From the NCBI RefSeq assembly GCF_004296515.1, contig NZ_AP018160.1, positions 1 through 32,000 of the forward strand: a stretch of 32,000 bases of DNA, read 5' to 3'. Both the position numbers and the translations under genes were made by a program. Positions 1,173 to 32,000 of this stretch are shown here, in pieces. Below the pieces are notes generated by a model. The model made no database searches, was not told the DNA's origin, and worked only from the letters and a program-made list of their open reading frames with translations. Origin of the DNA: Candidatus Saccharimonadota bacterium (GTDB lineage: Bacteria > Pseudomonadota > Gammaproteobacteria > Enterobacterales > Enterobacteriaceae). The number at the start of each line of letters is the position of its first letter. Position 1 is the stretch's first letter.

Positions 1173-3572
1173 ATGTCAAAATATGATTCTTCAAGTATAA
1201 AAGTATTAAAAGGATTAGATGCTGTAAAAAAACGTCCTGGAATGTATATAGGAAATACTGATGATGGTACTGGATTTCATCATATGTTATTTGAAGTTAT
1301 AGATAACTCTATAGATGAATATTTAGCTGGATACTGTAATAAAATAAGTGTATGTATATATAAAGATAATTCTATATCAGTAGAAGATAATGGTAGAGGA
1401 ATACCTATTGATATCCATAAAGAAGAAAATATATCAGCAGCAGAACTAATAATGACTACATTACATGCCGGAGGTAAATTTGATAATTTATCATATGAAA
1501 TATCTGGAGGACTTCATGGTGTAGGAATTTCAGTTGTTAATGCATTATCAGAAAAATTACAATTAATTATATATAGAAATGGATATATATATGAACAAAT
1601 TTATAGTTATGGATTACCTAAAGATAAAATAAAAATAATAGGTAAATCAAATAATAATGGAACTTTTATAAGATTTTGGCCTGATTTAAATATATTTACA
1701 AATAATACTAATTTTCAATTTAATTTAATATTAAGCAGATTAAAAGAAATATCATATTTAAATTCTAATATATCTATCCAATTAGAAGACTTAAGAAAGG
1801 ATAATTCTAAAAAAATAATAGAAAATAATGATGGTATTAAATCTTTTATAAAAGATTTAATAAAAGATAAAGATGTTATACATAATAATATTTTTTATAT
1901 GAATTCAAATAAAAATAATATTAATGTAGAAATAGCTTTACAATGGATTAATTCATTTCAAGATATAGTTTATTGTTTTACAAATAATATAAAACAAAAG
2001 GATGGAGGTACTCATTTATCTGGATTTAGATCATCTATAACAAAAACTATAAATAATTATATAGAAAAAGAAGAAATATATAAGAGAAGTAAATTAAACA
2101 TAATAGGAGAAGATACAAGAGAAGGATTAGTATCAGTAATATCTATAAAATATTCTAGTCCTAAATTTTCATCTCAAACAAAAGACAAATTAATTTCTCC
2201 AGAAATTAAAAATGTAGTAGAATCTTTGCTAAGTGATTATTTAATGGATTTTTTATTAGAAAATCAAAATGATTCTAAATTAATAATTAATAAAATCATA
2301 CAATCATCAAAATCTAGAGAAGCTGCTAAAAAAGCAAAAGAAACAATAAGAAAGAAAAATAATGATATATTTAATTTATTAGGTAAATTGTCTGATTGTC
2401 AAGAAAATAATCCTGATTTATCAGAATTATATCTTGTAGAAGGTGATTCAGCTGGTGGATCTGCAAAACAAGGAAGAAATAGAAAAAATCAAGCTATTTT
2501 ACCATTAAAAGGAAAAATAATTAATGTAGAAAAATCAAAAATAGATAAAATATTATCTTCACAAGAAATTGTTTCGTTAATAACTGCTTTAGGATGTGGA
2601 ATAGAAAATCATAATTTTAATATAGATAAAATAAGATATAAAAAAATAATAATAATGACAGATGCAGATATAGATGGTTCTCATATAAGAACATTATTAT
2701 TAACATTCTTTTATAGATATATACCTGAAATAATTAATAATGGATATTTATTTATTGCTCAACCGCCATTATATAAAATAAAATTTAATAAAAATGAAAT
2801 ATTTATCAAAACACACAATGAATTAATAGATTTCAAAATTAAATTATTTACTAAAAATATAACCTTATTCTATGATAATAAATCCATTTCTTCTATAGAA
2901 TTAGAAGAAATATTGAGATTATATATAGATGTAAATAATTTAATAATTAAATTAAAAAACATATATCCTTATATATTACTAAATGAAATTTTAAATAGTG
3001 AATATACTATAAATAAAAATGATTTATATAATTTTAATAAAATAAATAAATGGTCTGAAGATATTTGTTTAAATATAAATAAACAATTCAAGTTTGAAAA
3101 ATGTACTTTTAATATATTCAATAATAATAATATTTTTGAACCAATATTTATTATTAATGATTATTTATGTAATGAATATAAAATAGACAATTGTTTTTTA
3201 GAAAGTAATGAATATAAAAAAATATTAAATTTTATTAAAATTAAAAATAAAATAATATTTGATAATAAATCATATATTAAATATAATAATTTAGTAAAAG
3301 AAGTTAATTCTTTTAAAGATTTTATAAATTATATAATAAATGATTCAAGAATTAATATAGATATACAAAGATATAAAGGATTAGGAGAAATGAATCCTGA
3401 TCAATTATGGTACTCAACAATGGATCCTAATAATAGAACTTTATTGAAAGTATTAGTAGAAAATAATAATAAATCAGATAATTTATTTTCTATATTAATG
3501 GGTGATAATGTTGAATCTAGAAAAAAATTTATAGAAGAAAATTCATTAAATGTTAATAATCTTGATATATAG
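1173..3572 (+). CDS. gyrB: DNA gyrase subunit B
   Basis: 799 aa. N-terminus is SSIKVLKGLDAVKKRPGMYIG. GHKL ATPase blocks are EVIDNSIDE and GGLHGVG. Toprim blocks are EGDSAGGSAKQGR and MTDADIDGSHI. The C-terminal block is QRYKGLGEMNP. It is the only gene in the window ending in TAG (3570-3572). Confidence 0.97.
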   Translation: MSKYDSSSIKVLKGLDAVKKRPGMYIGNTDDGTGFHHMLFEVIDNSIDEYLAGYCNKISVCIYKDNSISVEDNGRGIPIDIHKEENISAAELIMTTLHAGGKFDNLSYEISGGLHGVGISVVNALSEKLQLIIYRNGYIYEQIYSYGLPKDKIKIIGKSNNNGTFIRFWPDLNIFTNNTNFQFNLILSRLKEISYLNSNISIQLEDLRKDNSKKIIENNDGIKSFIKDLIKDKDVIHNNIFYMNSNKNNINVEIALQWINSFQDIVYCFTNNIKQKDGGTHLSGFRSSITKTINNYIEKEEIYKRSKLNIIGEDTREGLVSVISIKYSSPKFSSQTKDKLISPEIKNVVESLLSDYLMDFLLENQNDSKLIINKIIQSSKSREAAKKAKETIRKKNNDIFNLLGKLSDCQENNPDLSELYLVEGDSAGGSAKQGRNRKNQAILPLKGKIINVEKSKIDKILSSQEIVSLITALGCGIENHNFNIDKIRYKKIIIMTDADIDGSHIRTLLLTFFYRYIPEIINNGYLFIAQPPLYKIKFNKNEIFIKTHNELIDFKIKLFTKNITLFYDNKSISSIELEEILRLYIDVNNLIIKLKNIYPYILLNEILNSEYTINKNDLYNFNKINKWSEDICLNINKQFKFEKCTFNIFNNNNIFEPIFIINDYLCNEYKIDNCFLESNEYKKILNFIKIKNKIIFDNKSYIKYNNLVKEVNSFKDFINYIINDSRINIDIQRYKGLGEMNPDQLWYSTMDPNNRTLLKVLVENNNKSDNLFSILMGDNVESRKKFIEENSLNVNNLDI

Positions 3573-3654
3573 AGAGAAGGGGATTCGAACCCCTGAAGAA
3601 AAAATTCTTTTCAATTTTCGAAATTGATCCGTTAATCCTCTCCGGCATCTCTCT
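3570..3654 (-). tRNA. tRNA-Ser, anticodon CGA, class II with long variable arm
   Basis: The reverse complement folds as a cloverleaf. Acceptor is AGAGAGA/TCTCTCT. Anticodon stem is TCAAT/ATTGA with loop TTCGAAA. Variable arm is AAGAA-TTTT-TTCTT. T arm is AGGGG-TTCGAAT-CCCCT. No CCA is encoded. The 3' end overlaps the gyrB stop codon. Confidence 0.85.
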
Positions 3655-12338: not shown

Positions 12339-13268
12339 ATGATAAATCATATTCCTGTAATGTTAGATGAAGTAATAGAAAATTTAAATATAATAAAAGA
12401 TGGAATATATATAGATTGTACATTTGGTTGTGGTGGTCATTCTATGGGTATACTTAAAAAATTAGGTAAAAATGGTAAATTAATATCTATAGATAAAGAT
12501 ATAGAATCTAAAACGTTTTCAAATAAAATAACTGATAATAGATTTATATTTATAAATGATAATTTTTCAAATATTAATAAATATTTATTAAATTTTAATC
12601 TTGTTGGAAAAATAAATGGAATTTTATTAGATTTAGGTTTATCCAGAAATCAAATATCTGATTCTACTAGAGGATTTTCATTTTTAAATAATGGACCACT
12701 AGACATGAGAATGAATAAAACTAAAGGATTAAAAGCGTATGATTTTATAAATAATGAATCTGAACAAGTAATATATAATGTTTTAAAAAAATTTGGAGAA
12801 GATAAAAATAGTAAAAAAATAGCTAGAAATATAATTATAAATAGAAATAAAAAAAAAATATTAAAAACATTTGATTTAAAAAAAATAATTTTAAATTCAT
12901 CTAATAATATAAAATCATTAGCTAGATGTTTTCAAGCAATAAGAATTTATATAAATAATGAAATTAAAGAGCTTAATTGTATATTAAATTTAGTACCAAA
13001 TATTTTATGTTTTAATGGAATATTATCTATAATAACATTTCATTCTATAGAAGATAAAATTGTTAAAAATTTCTTTAAAATATCTAATGAAGAACATATT
13101 TTTTTAAATAAAATTCCTATTACAAATATAGAATATATAAATATTAAAAATAAATTAATAAAAATGATAGAAATTAATAAGATTAAACCTTCTTTAAATG
13201 AAATTAAAAATAATAATTCTTCTAGAAGTGCAATATTAAGAGTATTCAAAAAAATAAATAAATTTTAA
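12339..13268 (+). CDS. rsmH: 16S rRNA (cytosine1402-N4)-methyltransferase RsmH/MraW
   Basis: 309 aa. The N-terminus HIPVMLDEV...YIDCTFGCGGHS matches RsmH, as do LLDLGLS, FSFLNNGPLDMRM and ITFHSIEDKIVK. It occupies the first position of the dcw cluster. Confidence 0.92.
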   Translation: MINHIPVMLDEVIENLNIIKDGIYIDCTFGCGGHSMGILKKLGKNGKLISIDKDIESKTFSNKITDNRFIFINDNFSNINKYLLNFNLVGKINGILLDLGLSRNQISDSTRGFSFLNNGPLDMRMNKTKGLKAYDFINNESEQVIYNVLKKFGEDKNSKKIARNIIINRNKKKILKTFDLKKIILNSSNNIKSLARCFQAIRIYINNEIKELNCILNLVPNILCFNGILSIITFHSIEDKIVKNFFKISNEEHIFLNKIPITNIEYINIKNKLIKMIEINKIKPSLNEIKNNNSSRSAILRVFKKINKF

Positions 13269-14747: not shown

Positions 14748-16121
14748 ATGATTAATTGTACATTAAAAGAAATAAGTAATATTGTAAATGGTAAATTAAT
14801 AGGAAAAAATAAAATAATAAATTTTATATCTATAAATTCAAAAAATATAAAAAATAAATGTTTATTTATAGCATTTAAAGGTATCAATTTTGATTCTCAT
14901 ATTTTTGTTGAAGATTCTATAAAAAATGGAGCTATAGCAATATTAGTGTCAAAATATTTTGTTAATATATCTATTCCTCAAATAATAGTAAATAACGTTA
15001 ATAATTCTTTTTTTTCTATAGCAAAATTTATAAGAAAAAAATCTAATTCTTATATTATAGCTATAACTGGTTCATGTGGTAAAACTTCTATTAAAGAAAT
15101 GACATTTTGTATATTAAAAAATATAAGAAAAAGTTATTTAACTAATAAAAATGAAAATAATATAATTGGTATAAGTTTAACATTATGTAATATAGAATAT
15201 TATAATATGTTTGTTATATTAGAAGTAGGAACAGATGGATTAAATCAAATAAATAATTTAATTGACATAATAGAACCAAATATAGTTTTAATAAGTAATT
15301 TATTTATATCTCATTTTTCAAAATTAAATAATTATTATAATTTAATACGTGCAAAAGGAGAAATATTAGAAAAATTATCTTTATGTAATAGAGTTATTTT
15401 AAATTTCGATAGTAATAATTGGAATTATTGGAAATTTATATCTTTTAATAAAATACCTTTATTTTTTTCTTTAAATAAATTAAATAATGTTGATTTTTAT
15501 TCAGAAAATATAATTACATATAATTTTAAATCTAGTTTTATATTAAATAGTCCAATAGGTAAAATAAAAATAAATTTAAATGTACCTGGAATTAATAATA
15601 TATATAATTCAATTGCGGCTTCTGCTATATCTATATTATTAGGTTCAAATCTTAATAATATACAAAAATCTTTATTTAAATTTAAATCAATAAATAATAG
15701 ATTAAAACCTATATTTATAAGTAAAAATAAAATAATATTAGATGATACATATAATGCAAATTTAGGATCATTTATATCTTCATCTAATTTATTATCTAAT
15801 ATTAATGGATATAAAGTTATTATTATAGCTGATATCCTAGAATTAGGAAATGCAGAAGTTTTTTTACATAAAAGAATGGGTAAAATTATAAATAATTTAA
15901 ATATAGATAAAGTATTAAGTATTGGTAAATTATCATATTATATTACTTTAAATTGTAAAGGTGAACATTTTTATAATATAAATAATTTAATTGAAAGAAT
16001 AGTTTTTCTAATAAAAAAATATAATAATATTGTAATTTTAATTAAAGGATCTAGAAAAAATAGACTTGATGAATTAATAAAAATATTAATAAATAAAAAA
16101 AATGATAACATTATTAATTAA
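14748..16121 (+). CDS. murF: UDP-N-acetylmuramoyl-tripeptide--D-alanyl-D-alanine ligase
   Basis: 457 aa. The N-terminus MI.CTLKEISNIVNGKL parallels E. coli MISVTLSQLTDILNGEL. The P-loop is ITGSCGKTS, followed by DDTYNAN and IKGSR. The ATG directly abuts the murE stop. Confidence 0.9.
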   Translation: MINCTLKEISNIVNGKLIGKNKIINFISINSKNIKNKCLFIAFKGINFDSHIFVEDSIKNGAIAILVSKYFVNISIPQIIVNNVNNSFFSIAKFIRKKSNSYIIAITGSCGKTSIKEMTFCILKNIRKSYLTNKNENNIIGISLTLCNIEYYNMFVILEVGTDGLNQINNLIDIIEPNIVLISNLFISHFSKLNNYYNLIRAKGEILEKLSLCNRVILNFDSNNWNYWKFISFNKIPLFFSLNKLNNVDFYSENIITYNFKSSFILNSPIGKIKINLNVPGINNIYNSIAASAISILLGSNLNNIQKSLFKFKSINNRLKPIFISKNKIILDDTYNANLGSFISSSNLLSNINGYKVIIIADILELGNAEVFLHKRMGKIINNLNIDKVLSIGKLSYYITLNCKGEHFYNINNLIERIVFLIKKYNNIVILIKGSRKNRLDELIKILINKKNDNIIN

Positions 16122-17167
16122 AGAATTTAATTTTAAATTTTTTAATATTTTATTAAAATCTATATTTAGTTTTTTTACATCTTTTCTTTTTTTTTTTTAT
16201 TATTTATTATAAATGTATATACTTATTTAAAAAATTTAATTTAAAACAAAAGAATAGATTAAATTCATTTCATGTTGAAAAATGTAATACATTTACAATG
16301 GGTGGATTAATTATATTATTATCTAGTTTATTATCAATAATACTTTGGTCAGATATATATAATATATATACATTATATTTTATAATATTTTTAATTTCTT
16401 ATGGAATTATAGGATTTATTGATGATTATATAAAAATATATAATAAATATTATTGTGGTTTTAAAATACTAGAAAAATATTTTATACAATCAATATTAAC
16501 ATTAATATTAATACTTTTTTTATATAAAACAGAAAACATTTTATTTATAGATAGAATATTTATTCCTTTTTTAAAAAAAAAAAATATTTATATAAATAAA
16601 TTTATTTATTTTTTATTAAGATATTTTACATTAATGGGTGCTATAAATTCTGTTAATATAACTGATGGATTAGATGGATTAGCTATTATATCTATTATTT
16701 TATCTTTATCAACATCAATAATTATTTCCATTATTTATAGTAATGAAATTTTATCTAATATTTTTAATACACTTTATATTAAAAATGCATATGAAATTAT
16801 TAATTTATCTTCGGCAATTATAGGATCTTCATTAGGATTTTTATGGTTTAATTCATATCCATCTTATATATTTATGGGAGATACAGGATCATTATCATTA
16901 GGTGGAATATTAGGATTAATTTTTATATTATTAAATAGTGAATTATTATTAATATTATCAGGTGGAATATTTGTTATAGAATTATTATCAATAATATTAC
17001 AAATAATTAGTTATAAAATTTTTAAAAAAAGAATATATTTAATGGCTCCTATACACCATCATTATGAAATAAAAGGAGTTCATGAATCAAAAATTGTTTT
17101 TAGATTTTCTATAATATCATTTATATTTAACTTATTATGTTTATTAATTATTTTTATTAGAAAGTAA
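16102..17167 (+). CDS. mraY: phospho-N-acetylmuramoyl-pentapeptide transferase, interrupted by a frameshift in a T12 tract
   Basis: The ORF-track entry 16298-17167 starts at the MGG that corresponds to about residue 74 of E. coli MraY. It carries VNITDGLDGLA, MGDTGSLSLGG and APIHHHYE. Its frame stays open back to 16157 and encodes ...KFNLKQKNRLNSFHVEKCNTFTMGG (E. coli [27 protein letters not shown]). The missing N-terminus (MITLLIKEFNFKFF...SIFSFFTSFLFFF) is in the adjacent frame, from the ATG at 16102 to the TAA at 16210-16212. The two frames overlap at T12 (16187-16198). Confidence 0.85.
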
Positions 17168-17170
17168 ATT

Positions 17171-18496
17171 ATGTTTAAAAATAAAAATATATTTATAATA
17201 GGATCTGGAATAACAGGAATTTCTTGTATTAATTATTTATTAAAAAAGGAATGTAATTTAACATTAATAGATACTAGATTAAATCCTCCTAATTTAAATT
17301 TAATTCCTGATAATATAAACACATTTTTTGGTAAAAATGTAAATTTTAATATGTTATTAAAATCAGATTTAGTTGTAATAAGTCCTGGATTTGATTATAA
17401 ATTAATAAATAATAATATATTAAATAAAATCAATATAACTAGTGATATAGAATTATTTTGTAAAGAAAAACCTAAATCTAAAATAATTGCTATAACCGGA
17501 ACTAATGGCAAAAGTACTGTATCTACTTTAATATTTAAAATTTTAAAAAATAATAATTATTTAGTTTACTTGGGTGGTAATATAGGTAATCCTGTACTAA
17601 ATTCTTTAAATATAGATTATGATTTTTATGTATTTGAATTATCTAGTTTTCAACTTGAAATTTTAAATAACTTAAAATCTTTCTCATCATCTATATTAAA
17701 TATAGGTTTTGATCATTTAGATAGACATATAAATATTAAAAATTATATAAATAGTAAATTAAAAATATTTAATAATTCTTATTATTGTGTAATTAATATT
17801 GATGATAATTTATCATATCCTAATAAAATTAATTTGAATTCTAAATATGAATTTTTTGGAATAAATAGTGGAAATTATCATTTAAAATTTATTAAAGATA
17901 AAATATATTTGATGTATAAAAATGATTTAATTATTGATAGTTCTAAATTAAAAATATTTGGAATACATAATTATATTAATGTATTATCTTCATTATCTTG
18001 TATAAAATATATAAATTTAAATTTTAATAAAGTAATAAATACTATAAAAAAGTTTAAACCATTAAATCATAGATTAAATTTAATATTAAATATAAATAAT
18101 ATAACTTGGATAAATGATTCAAAATCTACAAATATATCAAGTACTATTTCTGCTATAAATAGTATAAAATTTTATAGTACTATACATTTAATAATTGGTG
18201 GATATAGAAAAAATATAGATTTTAATTTATTAAAATCTTTTTTAAAAAATAAAAATATAAAAATTTATTGTTTTGGAATAGATGGTAAATATATAAGTAA
18301 TTTATTTAATAAAAAATCTATTTATTATTATGATTTAGAATCTATTGTATATGAAATATATAATAAAGTAAAAATTAATGATGTAGTTCTTTTTTCTCCA
18401 GCTTGTTCTAGTATTGATAATTATAATAATTATATTGATAGAGGAAATCATTTTATTAAAATTGTAAATAAATTATATAAAATAAATGATAACTAA
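17171..18496 (+). CDS. murD: UDP-N-acetylmuramoylalanine--D-glutamate ligase
   Basis: 441 aa. It has an N-terminal Rossmann-like IIGSGITG, the P-loop ITGTNGKST, and NDSKSTN (E. coli DSKATN). It overlaps the murG start by 11 nt. Confidence 0.9.
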   Translation: MFKNKNIFIIGSGITGISCINYLLKKECNLTLIDTRLNPPNLNLIPDNINTFFGKNVNFNMLLKSDLVVISPGFDYKLINNNILNKINITSDIELFCKEKPKSKIIAITGTNGKSTVSTLIFKILKNNNYLVYLGGNIGNPVLNSLNIDYDFYVFELSSFQLEILNNLKSFSSSILNIGFDHLDRHINIKNYINSKLKIFNNSYYCVINIDDNLSYPNKINLNSKYEFFGINSGNYHLKFIKDKIYLMYKNDLIIDSSKLKIFGIHNYINVLSSLSCIKYINLNFNKVINTIKKFKPLNHRLNLILNINNITWINDSKSTNISSTISAINSIKFYSTIHLIIGGYRKNIDFNLLKSFLKNKNIKIYCFGIDGKYISNLFNKKSIYYYDLESIVYEIYNKVKINDVVLFSPACSSIDNYNNYIDRGNHFIKIVNKLYKINDN

Positions 18497-21000: not shown

Positions 21001-23514
21001 ATGTTTAATTATTTTTCTAAATATATAAATAAATATAAAAATCAGCATATATTAAATTCAATAAAAAAAAAAGTAGAAATTATTAATTTTATTAGTAAAG
21101 ATATAGAAAAATTAAGTGATAAAGAGTTATCAAATAAAACTAATGAATTTATATTTAGATTAAATAAAGGAAAGGATATAGATTCTATATTATTTGAATC
21201 TTTTGCTGTTGTAAAAGAATCTATAAATAGAATATTTGGAATTAAATTATTTGATGTTCAAATAATAGGTGGAATTGTATTACATAATAAATGTATAGCT
21301 GAAATGTCTACTGGTGAAGGTAAAACTTTAACTTCTACATTGCCAGCTTATTTTAATTCATTATATAAAAAAGGAGTTCATATAGTTACTATGAATGATT
21401 ATTTAGCTAAAAGAGATGCAGAAAATAATATTCCTTTATTTAAATTTTTAGGAATTACTGTTGGTATTAATTTGAGTAATTCATCTTTTGAAGAAAAAAA
21501 AAAATCTTATTTATGTGATATAACATATGGAACAAATAATGAATATTGTTTTGATTATTTAAGAGATAATTTAGTCATGAATTATAATGATAAGATTCAA
21601 AGATCTTTAAATTATGCAATAATAGATGAAATAGATTCTATATTAATAGATGAAGCAAGAACTCCATTAATAATATCAGATCAAAATAAAAATAATTCTT
21701 CTTTATATTTAAAAATTAATTCATTAATAAAATATTTAATAAATAATGATATATATTTTGAAAAAGATAAATATTTTATTTTAGATTTAAAATTTAAACA
21801 AATAACTTTAACAGAAAATGGTTTTAAATTAATAGAAAAATTAATGATTAATTTAAATTATATTAAAAATGAAAATTTATTATATCTTCCAGAAAATATT
21901 ATATTAGTACATCATTTTATAATATCATTAAAAGCTCATTTATTATTTAAAATTAATATAGATTATATTATAAAAGATAATAAAGTTATTATTGTTGATG
22001 AGAATACTGGTAGGGCAATAGAAAAAAGAAGATGGTCTGATGGATTACATCAAGCAATAGAGGCTAAAGAGAATTTAGAAATACAAAATGAAAGTTATAA
22101 TTTAACATCAATAACATTTCAAAGTTATTTTAAATTATATAATAAATTATCTGGAATGACTGGAACCGCTTATTCTGAAAAAGAAGAATTTAAATATATA
22201 TATAATCTTGATACTATAGTAATACCAACTAATAAATTAATTATAAGAAAAGATTTTCCAGATTTAATATTCTTAACAGAAAAAGATAAAATAAAAGCAA
22301 TTATAAATGATATAATAAAATGTCATAATAAAAATCAACCTGTATTAGTTGGTACAATATCTATAGAAAAATCTGAATTTATATCTAATGAATTAAAGAA
22401 AATAGGTATAAAACATAATATATTAAATGCAAAATATAATGAAGCAGAAGCAGAAATAATATCTCAAGCTGGAAAACCTGGTTCTATTACAATAGCAACA
22501 AATATGGCTGGTAGAGGTACAGATATTATTTTAGGTGGAAATTTTAATAATGAAATAAAAAATTTAAAAAATAAAGATATTTCTATAATTAATAAAATTA
22601 AAAATAATTGGAAATTAAATAATAATATTGTAATAAAATCTGGAGGATTACATATAATAGGAACCGAAAGACATGAATCTAGAAGAATAGATAATCAACT
22701 TATAGGAAGATCTGGAAGACAAGGTGATCCTGGTTCTTCTAAATTTTATTTATCTATGGAAGATCAACTTATTAAAATGTTTATTTCAGATAAAATGTTG
22801 GATTTAATAAGTAAGTTAGATTTTTCTAAATTAGAACATCCTTGGATAGATATTTTAATAAGAAATTCTCAAAAAAAAATAGAAAATAGAAATTTTAATA
22901 TTAGAAAACAATTAATAATGTATGATGATATATATAATAATCAAAGAAATATTATATATAAAATAAGAGATTATTTTTTAAGTATTGATGATATTTATAA
23001 TATTGTGAAATTATTTATAGATGAAATTATAAATAATATTTTATTAAAATTTATTCCAATAAATTCTAATAAAAAAAAGTGGGATATTGAAAAATTAAAT
23101 AATTTTTTAATTAAAGATTTTAATTTTTTAGATTTATTATTAAATAATATAGATATTTATAAAATTAATAATGATTGTTTAATTAGAGATTTAATATATA
23201 AAAAAATAATAGAAAATTATAATAATTTTTTAAAATATAAAAATATATTAAGTACTATAAAAAGTAGTATTTTTATAAAAAAATTAGATTTATTATGGAG
23301 AGAACATTTAAATAATTTAGATAATTTACATAAAGGTATATATTTAAGAAGTTATGCTCAGAAAAATCCTAGACAAGAATTTAAATTAGAATCTTTTAAT
23401 TTATTTAATAATATGTTATTTTCATGGAAATTTGAAAGTTTAGTTGTATTAAATAAATTTATTTTTAATAATAAATCTTCTTTGGATGAAAATTTGATAA
23501 ATAATATTTATTAA
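21001..23514 (+). CDS. secA: preprotein translocase ATPase SecA (no C-terminal zinc-finger tail)
   Basis: 837 aa. Matching blocks are FDVQIIGGIVLH, AEMSTGEGKTL, DEIDSILIDEARTPLIIS, ATNMAGRGTDI and RIDNQLIGRSGRQGDPGSSKFYLS. The C-terminus has no Cys-rich CPCGSGKKYKQCHG-type motif. Confidence 0.95.
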   Translation: MFNYFSKYINKYKNQHILNSIKKKVEIINFISKDIEKLSDKELSNKTNEFIFRLNKGKDIDSILFESFAVVKESINRIFGIKLFDVQIIGGIVLHNKCIAEMSTGEGKTLTSTLPAYFNSLYKKGVHIVTMNDYLAKRDAENNIPLFKFLGITVGINLSNSSFEEKKKSYLCDITYGTNNEYCFDYLRDNLVMNYNDKIQRSLNYAIIDEIDSILIDEARTPLIISDQNKNNSSLYLKINSLIKYLINNDIYFEKDKYFILDLKFKQITLTENGFKLIEKLMINLNYIKNENLLYLPENIILVHHFIISLKAHLLFKINIDYIIKDNKVIIVDENTGRAIEKRRWSDGLHQAIEAKENLEIQNESYNLTSITFQSYFKLYNKLSGMTGTAYSEKEEFKYIYNLDTIVIPTNKLIIRKDFPDLIFLTEKDKIKAIINDIIKCHNKNQPVLVGTISIEKSEFISNELKKIGIKHNILNAKYNEAEAEIISQAGKPGSITIATNMAGRGTDIILGGNFNNEIKNLKNKDISIINKIKNNWKLNNNIVIKSGGLHIIGTERHESRRIDNQLIGRSGRQGDPGSSKFYLSMEDQLIKMFISDKMLDLISKLDFSKLEHPWIDILIRNSQKKIENRNFNIRKQLIMYDDIYNNQRNIIYKIRDYFLSIDDIYNIVKLFIDEIINNILLKFIPINSNKKKWDIEKLNNFLIKDFNFLDLLLNNIDIYKINNDCLIRDLIYKKIIENYNNFLKYKNILSTIKSSIFIKKLDLLWREHLNNLDNLHKGIYLRSYAQKNPRQEFKLESFNLFNNMLFSWKFESLVVLNKFIFNNKSSLDENLINNIY

Positions 23515-23517
23515 TTT

Positions 23518-25005
23518 ATGAAGATAAATATTTTAAATAAATTAAGATTATCTTATAAAAAAATAATAAATAATAATTCAGAATATATATTTAATACAAA
23601 TAAAAAAAAAAATAATTTTTCTATTACATTTAACAAAAATATACTAATAGATTTTTCTAAAAATATTATTAATAACAATATAATAAATTTATTAGTTAAA
23701 TTATTTAATAAATTTAATTTTTTAAATTTAAAAAATAATAATTATTTAAGTTATAAAGAAATATTTTATTTAGATACTATTTTAATAAATAAAATAAATT
23801 TTTTATATAATAAACTTATTTATAACTCTTTTAATATTATAGAAAATATAGTAAATATAGGTCATTTAAAATATAAATATGAATTTGATTTTATATCTAA
23901 TGTATTAAAAGAATATAAAGTAAATAATTATAAATTTTATTATTTATCTTATTTAAATTCAGATATTATAAATATAATAAAAAATTTTAATTTAAAAAAA
24001 ACTATTTTTATAATTTCATATGATACATATGAAGATTATAAATTAATAGAAATTATTAATTTTATAATAAATAGAATTAATCTAGAAATAGATAATATTA
24101 ATAATTATATAAATACTAATATTATTATATTAACATCTTTAAATTTAAAAAATAGAATATTTAATATAAATACTAATAATATTATATATATAAATACTAA
24201 TATAAATATTAATACTAATTCTATATATTATATAAGTATGATTTTGTTAATATATTTAGGTAATTTAAATTTTAATAATTTTATTAAAGGTATTAAAAAT
24301 ATAAATAATAATTTTTTATATGAAAAAAAAATATATAATAATATATCAGTTTTATTATCTTTAATAGATATTTGGTATTTAATATTTTTTAAATTTAGAA
24401 TTAATTTAATGTTTTTAGATTATTATTTAAACAATTTTATAAATTATTATATAAATTTACATTTATTTTATAAAAATATTAGTTTTTATAAAAATATAAT
24501 ATTAGGATCTTCAGATATATATATTCAAAATTTTTTATATAAAACATTACTTAATAATAAAAATTTAAATTGTGAATTTATTTTTTTTTGTAAAAATAAT
24601 AATTTTTTATTTGAATATAATCATAATAATTTTATTTCTGAATCATTTTATAGATCTAGATCTATGTTTTTTATAAATAATAATATAAATAATATAAAAA
24701 ATTTTTTATTTAATAAAAAAAGAAAAAATTATGAATTTAATAATAATATAAATATTATTCCAAATAATTTTATTCTTTTAAATAAGTTAAATCCTAATAA
24801 TTTAGGTATTTTAATTTATATTTATAAATATAGAATTTTTTTAAAAAATATTTTAATAAGCAATATTAAAAATGAAAAATTAAATTTTAATTATTTAGAT
24901 AATATAATAGATATTTTAGATATAAAATTAGAAAATCAAGAAACTAATTACGATACTTCAACTAATGAATTAATAAATTTTTATAAAAAAAATAGGTATA
25001 TATAA
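23518..25005 (+). CDS. pgi: glucose-6-phosphate isomerase homologue, highly eroded (catalytic motifs not recognisable)
   Basis: 495 aa. Five collinear blocks match E. coli Pgi. FSITFNKNILIDFSKN matches FSATFDDQMLVDYSKN. VNIG is identical. ISVLLSLIDIWYLIFF matches LPVLLALIGIWYNNFF. LGILIYIYKYRIF matches LGALIALYEHKIF. YDTSTNELINFYKKNR matches HDSSTNGLINRYKAWR. Confidence 0.7.
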   Translation: MKINILNKLRLSYKKIINNNSEYIFNTNKKKNNFSITFNKNILIDFSKNIINNNIINLLVKLFNKFNFLNLKNNNYLSYKEIFYLDTILINKINFLYNKLIYNSFNIIENIVNIGHLKYKYEFDFISNVLKEYKVNNYKFYYLSYLNSDIINIIKNFNLKKTIFIISYDTYEDYKLIEIINFIINRINLEIDNINNYINTNIIILTSLNLKNRIFNINTNNIIYINTNININTNSIYYISMILLIYLGNLNFNNFIKGIKNINNNFLYEKKIYNNISVLLSLIDIWYLIFFKFRINLMFLDYYLNNFINYYINLHLFYKNISFYKNIILGSSDIYIQNFLYKTLLNNKNLNCEFIFFCKNNNFLFEYNHNNFISESFYRSRSMFFINNNINNIKNFLFNKKRKNYEFNNNINIIPNNFILLNKLNPNNLGILIYIYKYRIFLKNILISNIKNEKLNFNYLDNIIDILDIKLENQETNYDTSTNELINFYKKNRYI

Positions 25006-26286: not shown

Positions 26287-26523
26287 TTGTTAAATAATAT
26301 AAATGAAATTAAATTTCTAATTTCTAAAAGACATATAGATATTTTAAAAAAATCATTTAATATTTTAAATATTGATGAAAATAAATTTGATATATCAATA
26401 TTATCGGATAATATTTCACTTTCTCAAAAAGAATTATTAAGTTTAATAAATATAAATAAAAATACACATAATTCAGAAAAAATATTATCAGAAATATTTT
26501 CAAAATTTTGTATAGGTAAATAA
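26287..26523 (+). CDS. hypothetical 78-codon ORF with no in-frame ATG; TTG is the only conventional start
   Basis: An open frame fills 237 of the 259 nt between rho and tRNA-Trp. It has no internal Met codon and no Shine-Dalgarno. I recognise no confident homologue. It may be spurious. Confidence 0.3.
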
Positions 26524-26527
26524 TAAA

Positions 26528-26599
26528 CAGGGATGGAGAGATTTGAACTCCCATCATCCAGTTTTGGAGACTGGCGATCTTCCATTGATCTACATCCCT
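26528..26599 (-). tRNA. tRNA-Trp, anticodon CCA
   Basis: The reverse complement is AGGGATGTAGATCAATGGAAGATCGCCAGTCTCCAAAACTGGATGATGGGAGTTCAAATCTCTCCATCCCTG. It is collinear with E. coli tRNA-Trp, with anticodon loop CTCCAAA. No CCA is encoded. Confidence 0.92.
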
Positions 26600-26610
26600 A
26601 TTTATTTATA

Positions 26611-26727
26611 TAAATGATATTTTCCTACTCTAACATAGAATAATCTATACTACCATCGGCACTATGATATTTCACTTCTGAATTCGGAATGGGATCAGGT
26701 GTTTCCATCACGTTATGAATATCAAAT
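26611..26727 (-). rRNA. rrf: 5S ribosomal RNA
   Basis: The reverse complement contains CACCTGATCCCATTCCGAATTCAGAAGTGAAAT and GCCGATGGTAGT...GAGAGTAGG-like blocks collinear with E. coli 5S. The ends, placed by alignment and helix I pairing (TGATATT/AATATCA), are accurate to a few nt. Confidence 0.92.
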
Positions 26728-26776
26728 ATATATATTTATAAATTTTATATTATAAAATTATACTTTTCAATACTTA

Positions 26777-29681
<2,905 letters not shown>

Positions 29682-29696
29682 ATAAGTATAAAATAT

Positions 29697-29768
29697 TGTC
29701 TCTTAGGGGATTCGAACCCCTATTATTGCCTTGAAAGGGCAATGTCCTAACCTTTAGACGAAAGAGAC
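29697..29768 (-). tRNA. tRNA-Glu, anticodon UUC
   Basis: The reverse complement is GTCTCTTTCGTCTAAAGGTTAGGACATTGCCCTTTCAAGGCAATAATAGGGGTTCGAATCCCCTAAGAGACA. It is collinear with E. coli tRNA-Glu, with anticodon loop CTTTCAA. No CCA is encoded. It sits in the usual spacer-tRNA position 5' of the 23S gene. Confidence 0.93.
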
Positions 29769-29778
29769 GATAAATTTA

Positions 29779-31747
<1,969 letters not shown>

Positions 31748-31947: not shown

Positions 31948-32000
31948 GCCCAAATAGCTCAGTTGGTAGAGCAATGGACTGAAGATCCATGTGTCGATGG
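31948..32000 (+). tRNA. tRNA-Phe, anticodon GAA, truncated by the window end
   Basis: GCCCAAATAGCTCAGTTGGTAGAGCAATGGACTGAAGATCCATGTGTCGATGG is collinear with E. coli tRNA-Phe (GCCCGGATAGCTCAGTCGGTAGAGCAGGGGATTGAAAATCCCCGTGTCCTTGG...). The anticodon loop is CTGAAGA. Confidence 0.9.

Follow-up and report, generated by a model that had tools for sequence, protein, structure and literature searches.

Genomic context of mraY

The stretch of DNA analysed here, referred to below as the window, comprises 32,000 nt with a G+C content of 19.4%, and all positions are given relative to its first nucleotide. We infer that it represents the first 32 kb of the 226,299-bp genome of 'Candidatus Nardonella' hosted by the weevil Pachyrhynchus infernalis (AP018160). 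Between positions 12339 and 25005, the division and cell-wall cluster has shrunk to rsmH-murE-murF-mraY-murD-murG-murC, directly followed by secA and pgi. The genes surrounding mraY, namely rsmH, murE, murF, murD, murG, and murC, and then secA and pgi, are intact, and the start codon of mraY sits inside the end of murF, giving an overlap of 20 nt (Table 1). Within this cluster, ftsL and ftsI are missing between rsmH and murE, ftsW is missing between murD and murG, and ddl, ftsQ, ftsA, ftsZ, and lpxC are missing 3' of murC. In the nearest foreign relatives (L040 and L043), ftsL, ftsI, ftsW, and ddl are still in place. The lipid II pathway adjoining mraY had been described in the first-pass annotation as otherwise intact, a statement that holds only for the cytoplasmic mur steps encoded in the window.

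Several further features lie outside the cluster. A tRNA-Ser(CGA) gene (3570-3654, minus strand) overlaps the stop codon of gyrB, located on the opposite strand, by 3 nt. An ORF of 78 aa at 26287-26523 (plus strand) matches the helical domain of MnmE (PF12631) over the last 69 positions only, with a score of 25.5 bits, below the cutoff of 40.1. Judged from this partial match, it is probably the remnant of a truncated mnmE, and it carries a CDS annotation in the genome of the sister isolate AP036057. The genes for tRNA-Glu, 23S rRNA, 5S rRNA, and tRNA-Trp follow one another at 26527-29768 (minus strand), directly downstream of groES-groEL (29779-31747, minus strand). No 16S rRNA gene is present anywhere in the window; consequently, this 23S-5S unit has no 16S gene next to it. 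The paper describing the sister genome AP036057 states that it has two 16S/23S/5S operons (PMC11984157). A tRNA gene at 31948-32000 (plus strand) is truncated by the end of the window.

Table 1. Features of the mraY region and the long in-frame A runs of the window
Feature	Position	Strand	Description
murF	14748..16121	+	intact upstream neighbour; Mur_ligase_M, 457 aa
mraY	16102..17167	+	phospho-N-acetylmuramoyl-pentapeptide-transferase; PF00953, TIGR00445; broken by a +1-nt frameshift in the AP018160 record
Upstream frame of mraY	16102..16212	+	32 authentic N-terminal codons (first transmembrane helix), 4 out-of-frame codons, TAA
Downstream (+1) frame of mraY	16157..17167	+	MraY residues 33-354; first canonical start ATG 16298
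T12 homopolymer	16187..16198	+	frameshift site; T11 in AP036057
A12 run in mraY	16573..16584	+	in-frame KKKK; internal control tract, same in both records
murD	17171..18496	+	intact downstream neighbour; MurD-like_N, Mur_ligase_M
A11 run in secA	21494..21504		in-frame Lys run
A11 run in pgi	23602..23612		in-frame Lys run

Reading frames of the split gene

The reading-frame arrangement proposed in the first-pass annotation was confirmed on the sequence in all its parts. The frame opened by the ATG of mraY comprises 36 codons (MITLLIKEFNFKFFNILLKSIFSFFTSFLFFFYYLL) and is closed by TAA at 16210-16212, shortly after the T12 tract. At the composition of the window, the probability of a stop is approximately 0.095 per codon, which gives p ~0.03 for 36 open codons. 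Consequently, the upstream frame is unlikely to be open by chance. The rest of MraY lies in the next (+1) frame, which is open from 16157 to its stop codon at 17165-17167, and the third frame is full of stops. The two open frames overlap only at 16157-16209, with the T12 tract inside this interval, and this is the sole region in which both can be read. Removal of one T from the tract restores a colinear MraY of 354 aa, and addition of two restores one of 355 aa. In the downstream frame there is no ATG before 16298, as had been claimed, and GTG and TTG are likewise absent from this part.

Identity of the repaired product

The 354-aa product obtained with a T11 tract scores 281 bits against the NCBIfam equivalog TIGR00445 (mraY; cutoff 192), and the products of the downstream frame alone score 266-282 bits. 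The match to PF00953 (glycosyltransferase family 4) has E=3e-27. Residues 11-350 align to residues 16-357 of E. coli MraY (PDB 8G01/8TLU) in a single stretch that is gap-free at the junction, and the alignment of the repaired product with Aquifex MraY (4J72) begins at residue 2-3. The frameshift junction coincides with the end of the first transmembrane helix, and as the alignment runs through it without a gap, an in-frame mraY is the ancestral state. The MraY motifs DDY, NxxNxTDGLDGL, FMGD, and HHH are kept, as is the Lys before TxTMGG, and the corresponding segments of the repaired protein (GFIDDY, NSVNITDGLDGLA, IFMGDTGS, APIHHHYE, and EKCNTFTMGG) align to the motifs of E. coli MraY.

In a protein search, the nearest foreign MraY sequences showed 50-53% identity. 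When genome contigs were scanned with the repaired MraY, neither the organism itself nor a close relative was recovered, the best matches being Buchnera (48%) and Stammera (41%), and a scan of metagenome contigs with the 36-nt sequence leading into the tract gave no match.

The 90% cluster that contains the MraY of the window has three members, of 289, 316, and 354 aa. The 354-aa member (BFR92608.1/WP_408063749.1, 'endosymbiont of Pachyrhynchus') is encoded on the 226,287-bp contig AP036057.1. Its CDS is annotated from the same ATG as that at 16102 in the window, and the protein is identical to the product of deleting one T from the window mraY. The 289-aa form starts at the ATG at 16298, and the 316-aa form starts at ATA 16217, read as Met; an exact look-up of the latter product led to no contig. 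These two entries are annotation workarounds for the frameshift. A split-gene design with an internal start was also considered and rejected: the product initiated at ATG 16298 (M66) is devoid of the first transmembrane helix and of the conserved Lys before TFTMGG, and the 316-aa form as a functional design would need an ATA start codon. For annotation purposes, the 354-aa form is to be taken as the product of the mraY gene.

Comparison with the sister isolate

The genome AP036057 belongs to isolate Pin-AIST and was sequenced independently, at 6,811x, from long-PCR products on DNBSEQ (PMC11984157). The weevils of the reference were field-collected in 2012 and the line that yielded AP036057 was collected in 2018, both from the same host species and the same island; genome-wide, 30 substitutions and 5 indels separate AP036057 from the reference AP018160 (PMC11984157). 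Positions 1-36,267 of AP036057 were aligned to the full 32,000-nt window as three overlapping loci. Only two differences were found over the 32,000 nt, at 2510 and at 16187-16198. The former, A in the window vs G in AP036057, is the sole substitution; it affects the third codon position of gyrB and is synonymous (AAA/AAG, Lys). The latter is the sole indel and corresponds to the tract itself, a hypermutable run, which is T12 in the window and T11 in AP036057. The other A/T runs of at least 8 nt (n=35) have equal lengths in both records, including the A12 run of mraY, located 385 nt downstream of the tract, and the A11 runs of secA and pgi. The gyrB substitution shows that the two records represent distinct isolates and not one dataset that has been re-polished.

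The continuous frame that includes the first transmembrane helix is thus broken at T12 in the window and unbroken in AP036057. The comparison of tract length in sister strains, which the first-pass annotation had suggested, speaks against a maintained frameshift, as AP036057 has T11 and its mraY is simply intact. That annotation had also held that a genomic T11 would make the gene simply intact. This largely applies, although the T11 comes from a different DNA sample and consequently is no proof of a sequencing error behind T12. On the sequences compared, the frameshift is not fixed or conserved in the lineage. Because an in-frame T11 allele exists, the retention of an apparently undegraded mraY needs no rescue mechanism.

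Tract length and base composition

The length of the tract was compared with first-order Markov simulations. The window contains four A/T runs of at least 11 nt, vs 1.8 +/- 1.2 in the simulations, and two of at least 12 nt, vs 0.76. Phe is encoded by TTT in 434 of 451 cases (96%). The T12 tract is not special, and its length is within the compositional expectation. Mutational bias alone gives rise to T11 where a Phe-rich first transmembrane helix contains Leu-Phe-Phe-Phe encoded as CTT-TTT-TTT-TTT. The closest foreign MraY genes, those of L040 and L043 (SRR258676xx assemblies, less reduced symbionts), encode the same helix with interrupted runs, T7+T8 or T7+T10, and are in frame. The A12 and A11 runs of mraY, secA, and pgi listed in Table 1 are long enough to allow appreciable transcriptional slippage even in 'intact' genes.

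Origin of the T12 tract

Under the reading favoured here, the native mraY would be an ordinary, functional gene with a T11 tract encoding Leu-Phe-Phe-Phe in the first transmembrane helix. T12 would be an overcall by one base, introduced by a sequencing or assembly error where the window has its longest run of Ts. Alternatively, it may be the consensus of a population of mixed tract lengths, in which genomes with an in-frame T11 would supply MraY. No selected recoding mechanism would be involved, and the tract would be a by-product of the extreme AT bias (19% GC). We consider the chances of a homopolymer miscall or a mixed-population consensus to be about even, and the choice of such an error or mixture over an allele predominant in 2012 is, in our inference, just as finely balanced. 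This reading is favoured because the 354-aa protein of AP036057 is identical to the delete-one-T repair and because AP036057, which is otherwise near-identical over 32,000 nt and was covered at 6,811x, has T11. It is further favoured by the lack of any other degeneration of mraY, whose motifs are kept and whose junction is colinear, by the intact neighbouring mur genes in a pathway kept in a 0.23-Mb genome, and by a tract length that composition explains, the runs of relatives being interrupted. However, the agreement at all other long runs implies that neither assembly is generally noisy at homopolymers, which counts against an overcall. The same is true of the verified homopolymer frameshifts of Blochmannia, which affect ~1% of genes, or 4-8 per genome (PMC3017870). 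The use of long PCR for AP036057 could contract runs, and this too would count against an overcall in the window, but the unchanged A12 run argues otherwise: it lies 385 nt away, most likely on the same 10-25-kb amplicon, and PCR contraction is therefore an unlikely source of the T11. Finally, since the isolates of 2012 and 2018 are distinct and carry real substitutions, a true T11/T12 polymorphism is quite plausible. Taken together, all readings in which T12 is a real, recent, unfixed allele have a probability somewhat short of one half.

Among these readings, the T12 tract may be a real, recent, and unfixed product of replication slippage that was predominant in the 2012 sample and is rescued by transcriptional slippage, an explanation that we regard as possible but tentative. 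RNA polymerase would slip on the 12-nt A template, and transcripts with U11 (-1) or U14 (+2) would be translated into MraY of 354 or 355 aa. T12 would then be a leaky rather than a null allele, and the bottlenecks of the symbiont could let it drift until it is frequent. The A/T run that holds the frameshift exceeds the RNA:DNA hybrid (~9 nt) in length, the gene is otherwise perfect, and such rescue has precedents: the account in PMC5009743, after Tamas et al. 2008, gives 12-50% corrected transcripts for frameshifted cell-wall genes of Buchnera and one gene of Blochmannia, and Blochmannia genomes carry the homopolymer-frameshifted genes counted above (PMC3017870). The agreement of the assemblies at the other long runs, together with the substitutions that also separate the isolates, is consistent with T12 being a true difference. 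Against this stands the T11 of the sister isolate, with which the frameshift is not conserved within the species, contrary to what maintenance by selection would entail. In addition, the tract needs a correction of -1 or +2, whereas +1 insertions dominate in the homopolymers of Buchnera, where homopolymers accounted for 151 of 157 insertions as against only 16 of 57 deletions (PMC5574713). The corrected fraction would consequently be probably at the low end. If T12 is real, some rescue by RNA polymerase slippage would in principle be very likely. The proposal of slippage rescue in the first-pass annotation stands as far as the mechanism is documented for such tracts, but the gene does not need it, and it would be an option solely for T12, provided that this allele is real.

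A real T12 could also mark mraY as an incipient pseudogene, with the loss of lipid I tolerated in the bacteriome and erosion of the peptidoglycan pathway beginning. The inactivation of endosymbiont genes usually begins with homopolymer indels (PMC3017870), and ftsL, ftsI, ftsW, ddl, and ftsQAZ have already gone from their usual places in the cluster. We nevertheless consider this quite unlikely, as mraY is free of a second lesion, the six flanking pathway genes are all intact, and the sister isolate has an intact gene and is identical elsewhere in the 32-kb window except at gyrB 2510. Multiple lesions or relaxed constraint, which would be the signs of a pseudogene, were not found: the gene shows a single 1-nt indel, and the rest is identical to the intact allele. 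Moreover, the retention of seven cluster genes in a 0.23-Mb genome implies strong selection on the pathway. Decoding of a real T12 by ribosomal frameshifting, in which peptidyl-tRNA-Phe would re-pair +1 or -2 on the U12 run, is extremely improbable. Such a run would permit perfect re-pairing of tRNA-Phe in any frame, but a stimulator is absent, the run is followed in the 0 frame by UAU (Tyr), which is neither a stop nor an obviously hungry codon, and the 0-frame stop lies 4 codons downstream of the run. No Shine-Dalgarno-like element is visible upstream, and the T12 site is not conserved in AP036057.

Comparison with known systems

The frameshifts of Buchnera and Blochmannia that are rescued by slippage share with mraY a one-base indel in an A/T run of at least 10 nt, an otherwise intact gene, and an AT-rich insect endosymbiont as the carrier. 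The Buchnera cases also share the functional class, which is cell-wall synthesis. As in the class described by Tamas et al. in 2008, and by Wernegreen and colleagues with regard to conservation, mraY is intact apart from a frameshift within an A/T homopolymer of at least ~9-10 nt. However, the sole independent genome, AP036057, has T11 and does not confirm the frameshift in DNA. Nor is the frameshift conserved without decay, as the sister from the same island is in frame, and so are the more distant L040 and L043. The known cases are DNA-verified, recur across populations or species, and show a corrected frame in 12-50% of transcripts (PMC5009743, PMC3017870), whereas the T12 of mraY is a putative allele and the only sister genome is in frame. 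The correction at T12 would also be -1 or +2, in contrast to the commoner +1 in Buchnera homopolymers.

Homopolymer miscalls and mixed-length consensus sequences in assemblies share with the mraY case a difference of +/-1 at the longest T run, an essential gene apparently broken with no other defect, and a high-coverage resequencing that is in frame. The mraY case differs in that all other long runs, including the A12 run of mraY itself, agree between the assemblies.

Phase-variable contingency loci contain homopolymer tracts in the 5' coding regions of genes, as in Neisseria, Haemophilus, and Campylobacter. They share with mraY a long 5' coding tract, a length difference of one unit between isolates, and a toggled frame; T11 vs T12 toggles the frame of mraY between the two records, one of which may be in error. 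In contrast to such loci, mraY has a housekeeping enzyme as its product, the symbiont is inherited vertically, and the tract is no longer than composition predicts (first-order Markov run counts). Nothing suggests adaptive or reversible switching at this tract, or an advantage of the OFF state.

Programmed ribosomal frameshifts, such as those of prfB (+1) and dnaX (-1), likewise consist of two overlapping frames joined at a slippery run. The mraY arrangement differs in that it is not conserved, being absent from AP036057, and has neither a conserved stimulator nor a stop or hungry codon where the shift would occur: UAU follows the run, and TAA comes 4 codons later.

Biological significance

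The split of mraY in AP018160 is most likely an ordinary difference in homopolymer length, or a miscall, and not a built-in recoding device. In AT-rich endosymbiont genomes, no type of difference or error is more common than a one-base change in the length of a long A/T run. Descriptions of transcriptional slippage at such runs, cell-wall genes included, date back to 2008, and this kind of feature is already known. As it stands, the mraY frameshift is of little importance.

It is very unlikely, though conceivable, that Nardonella populations switch genuinely, repeatedly, and reversibly between T11 (ON) and T12 (leaky OFF) in a manner resembling phase variation, and that this acts on the committed membrane step in the synthesis of peptidoglycan precursors. 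If this were the case, slippage would set the residual MraY of the OFF allele, and the switch could tune the exposure of immunogenic peptidoglycan to the weevil host. Should T12 truly prove to be the majority allele of wild weevils, a known class would gain one further example. If T12 is real, the T11 and T12 lines within one host species would form a small, convenient system for studying the output of MraY by slippage.
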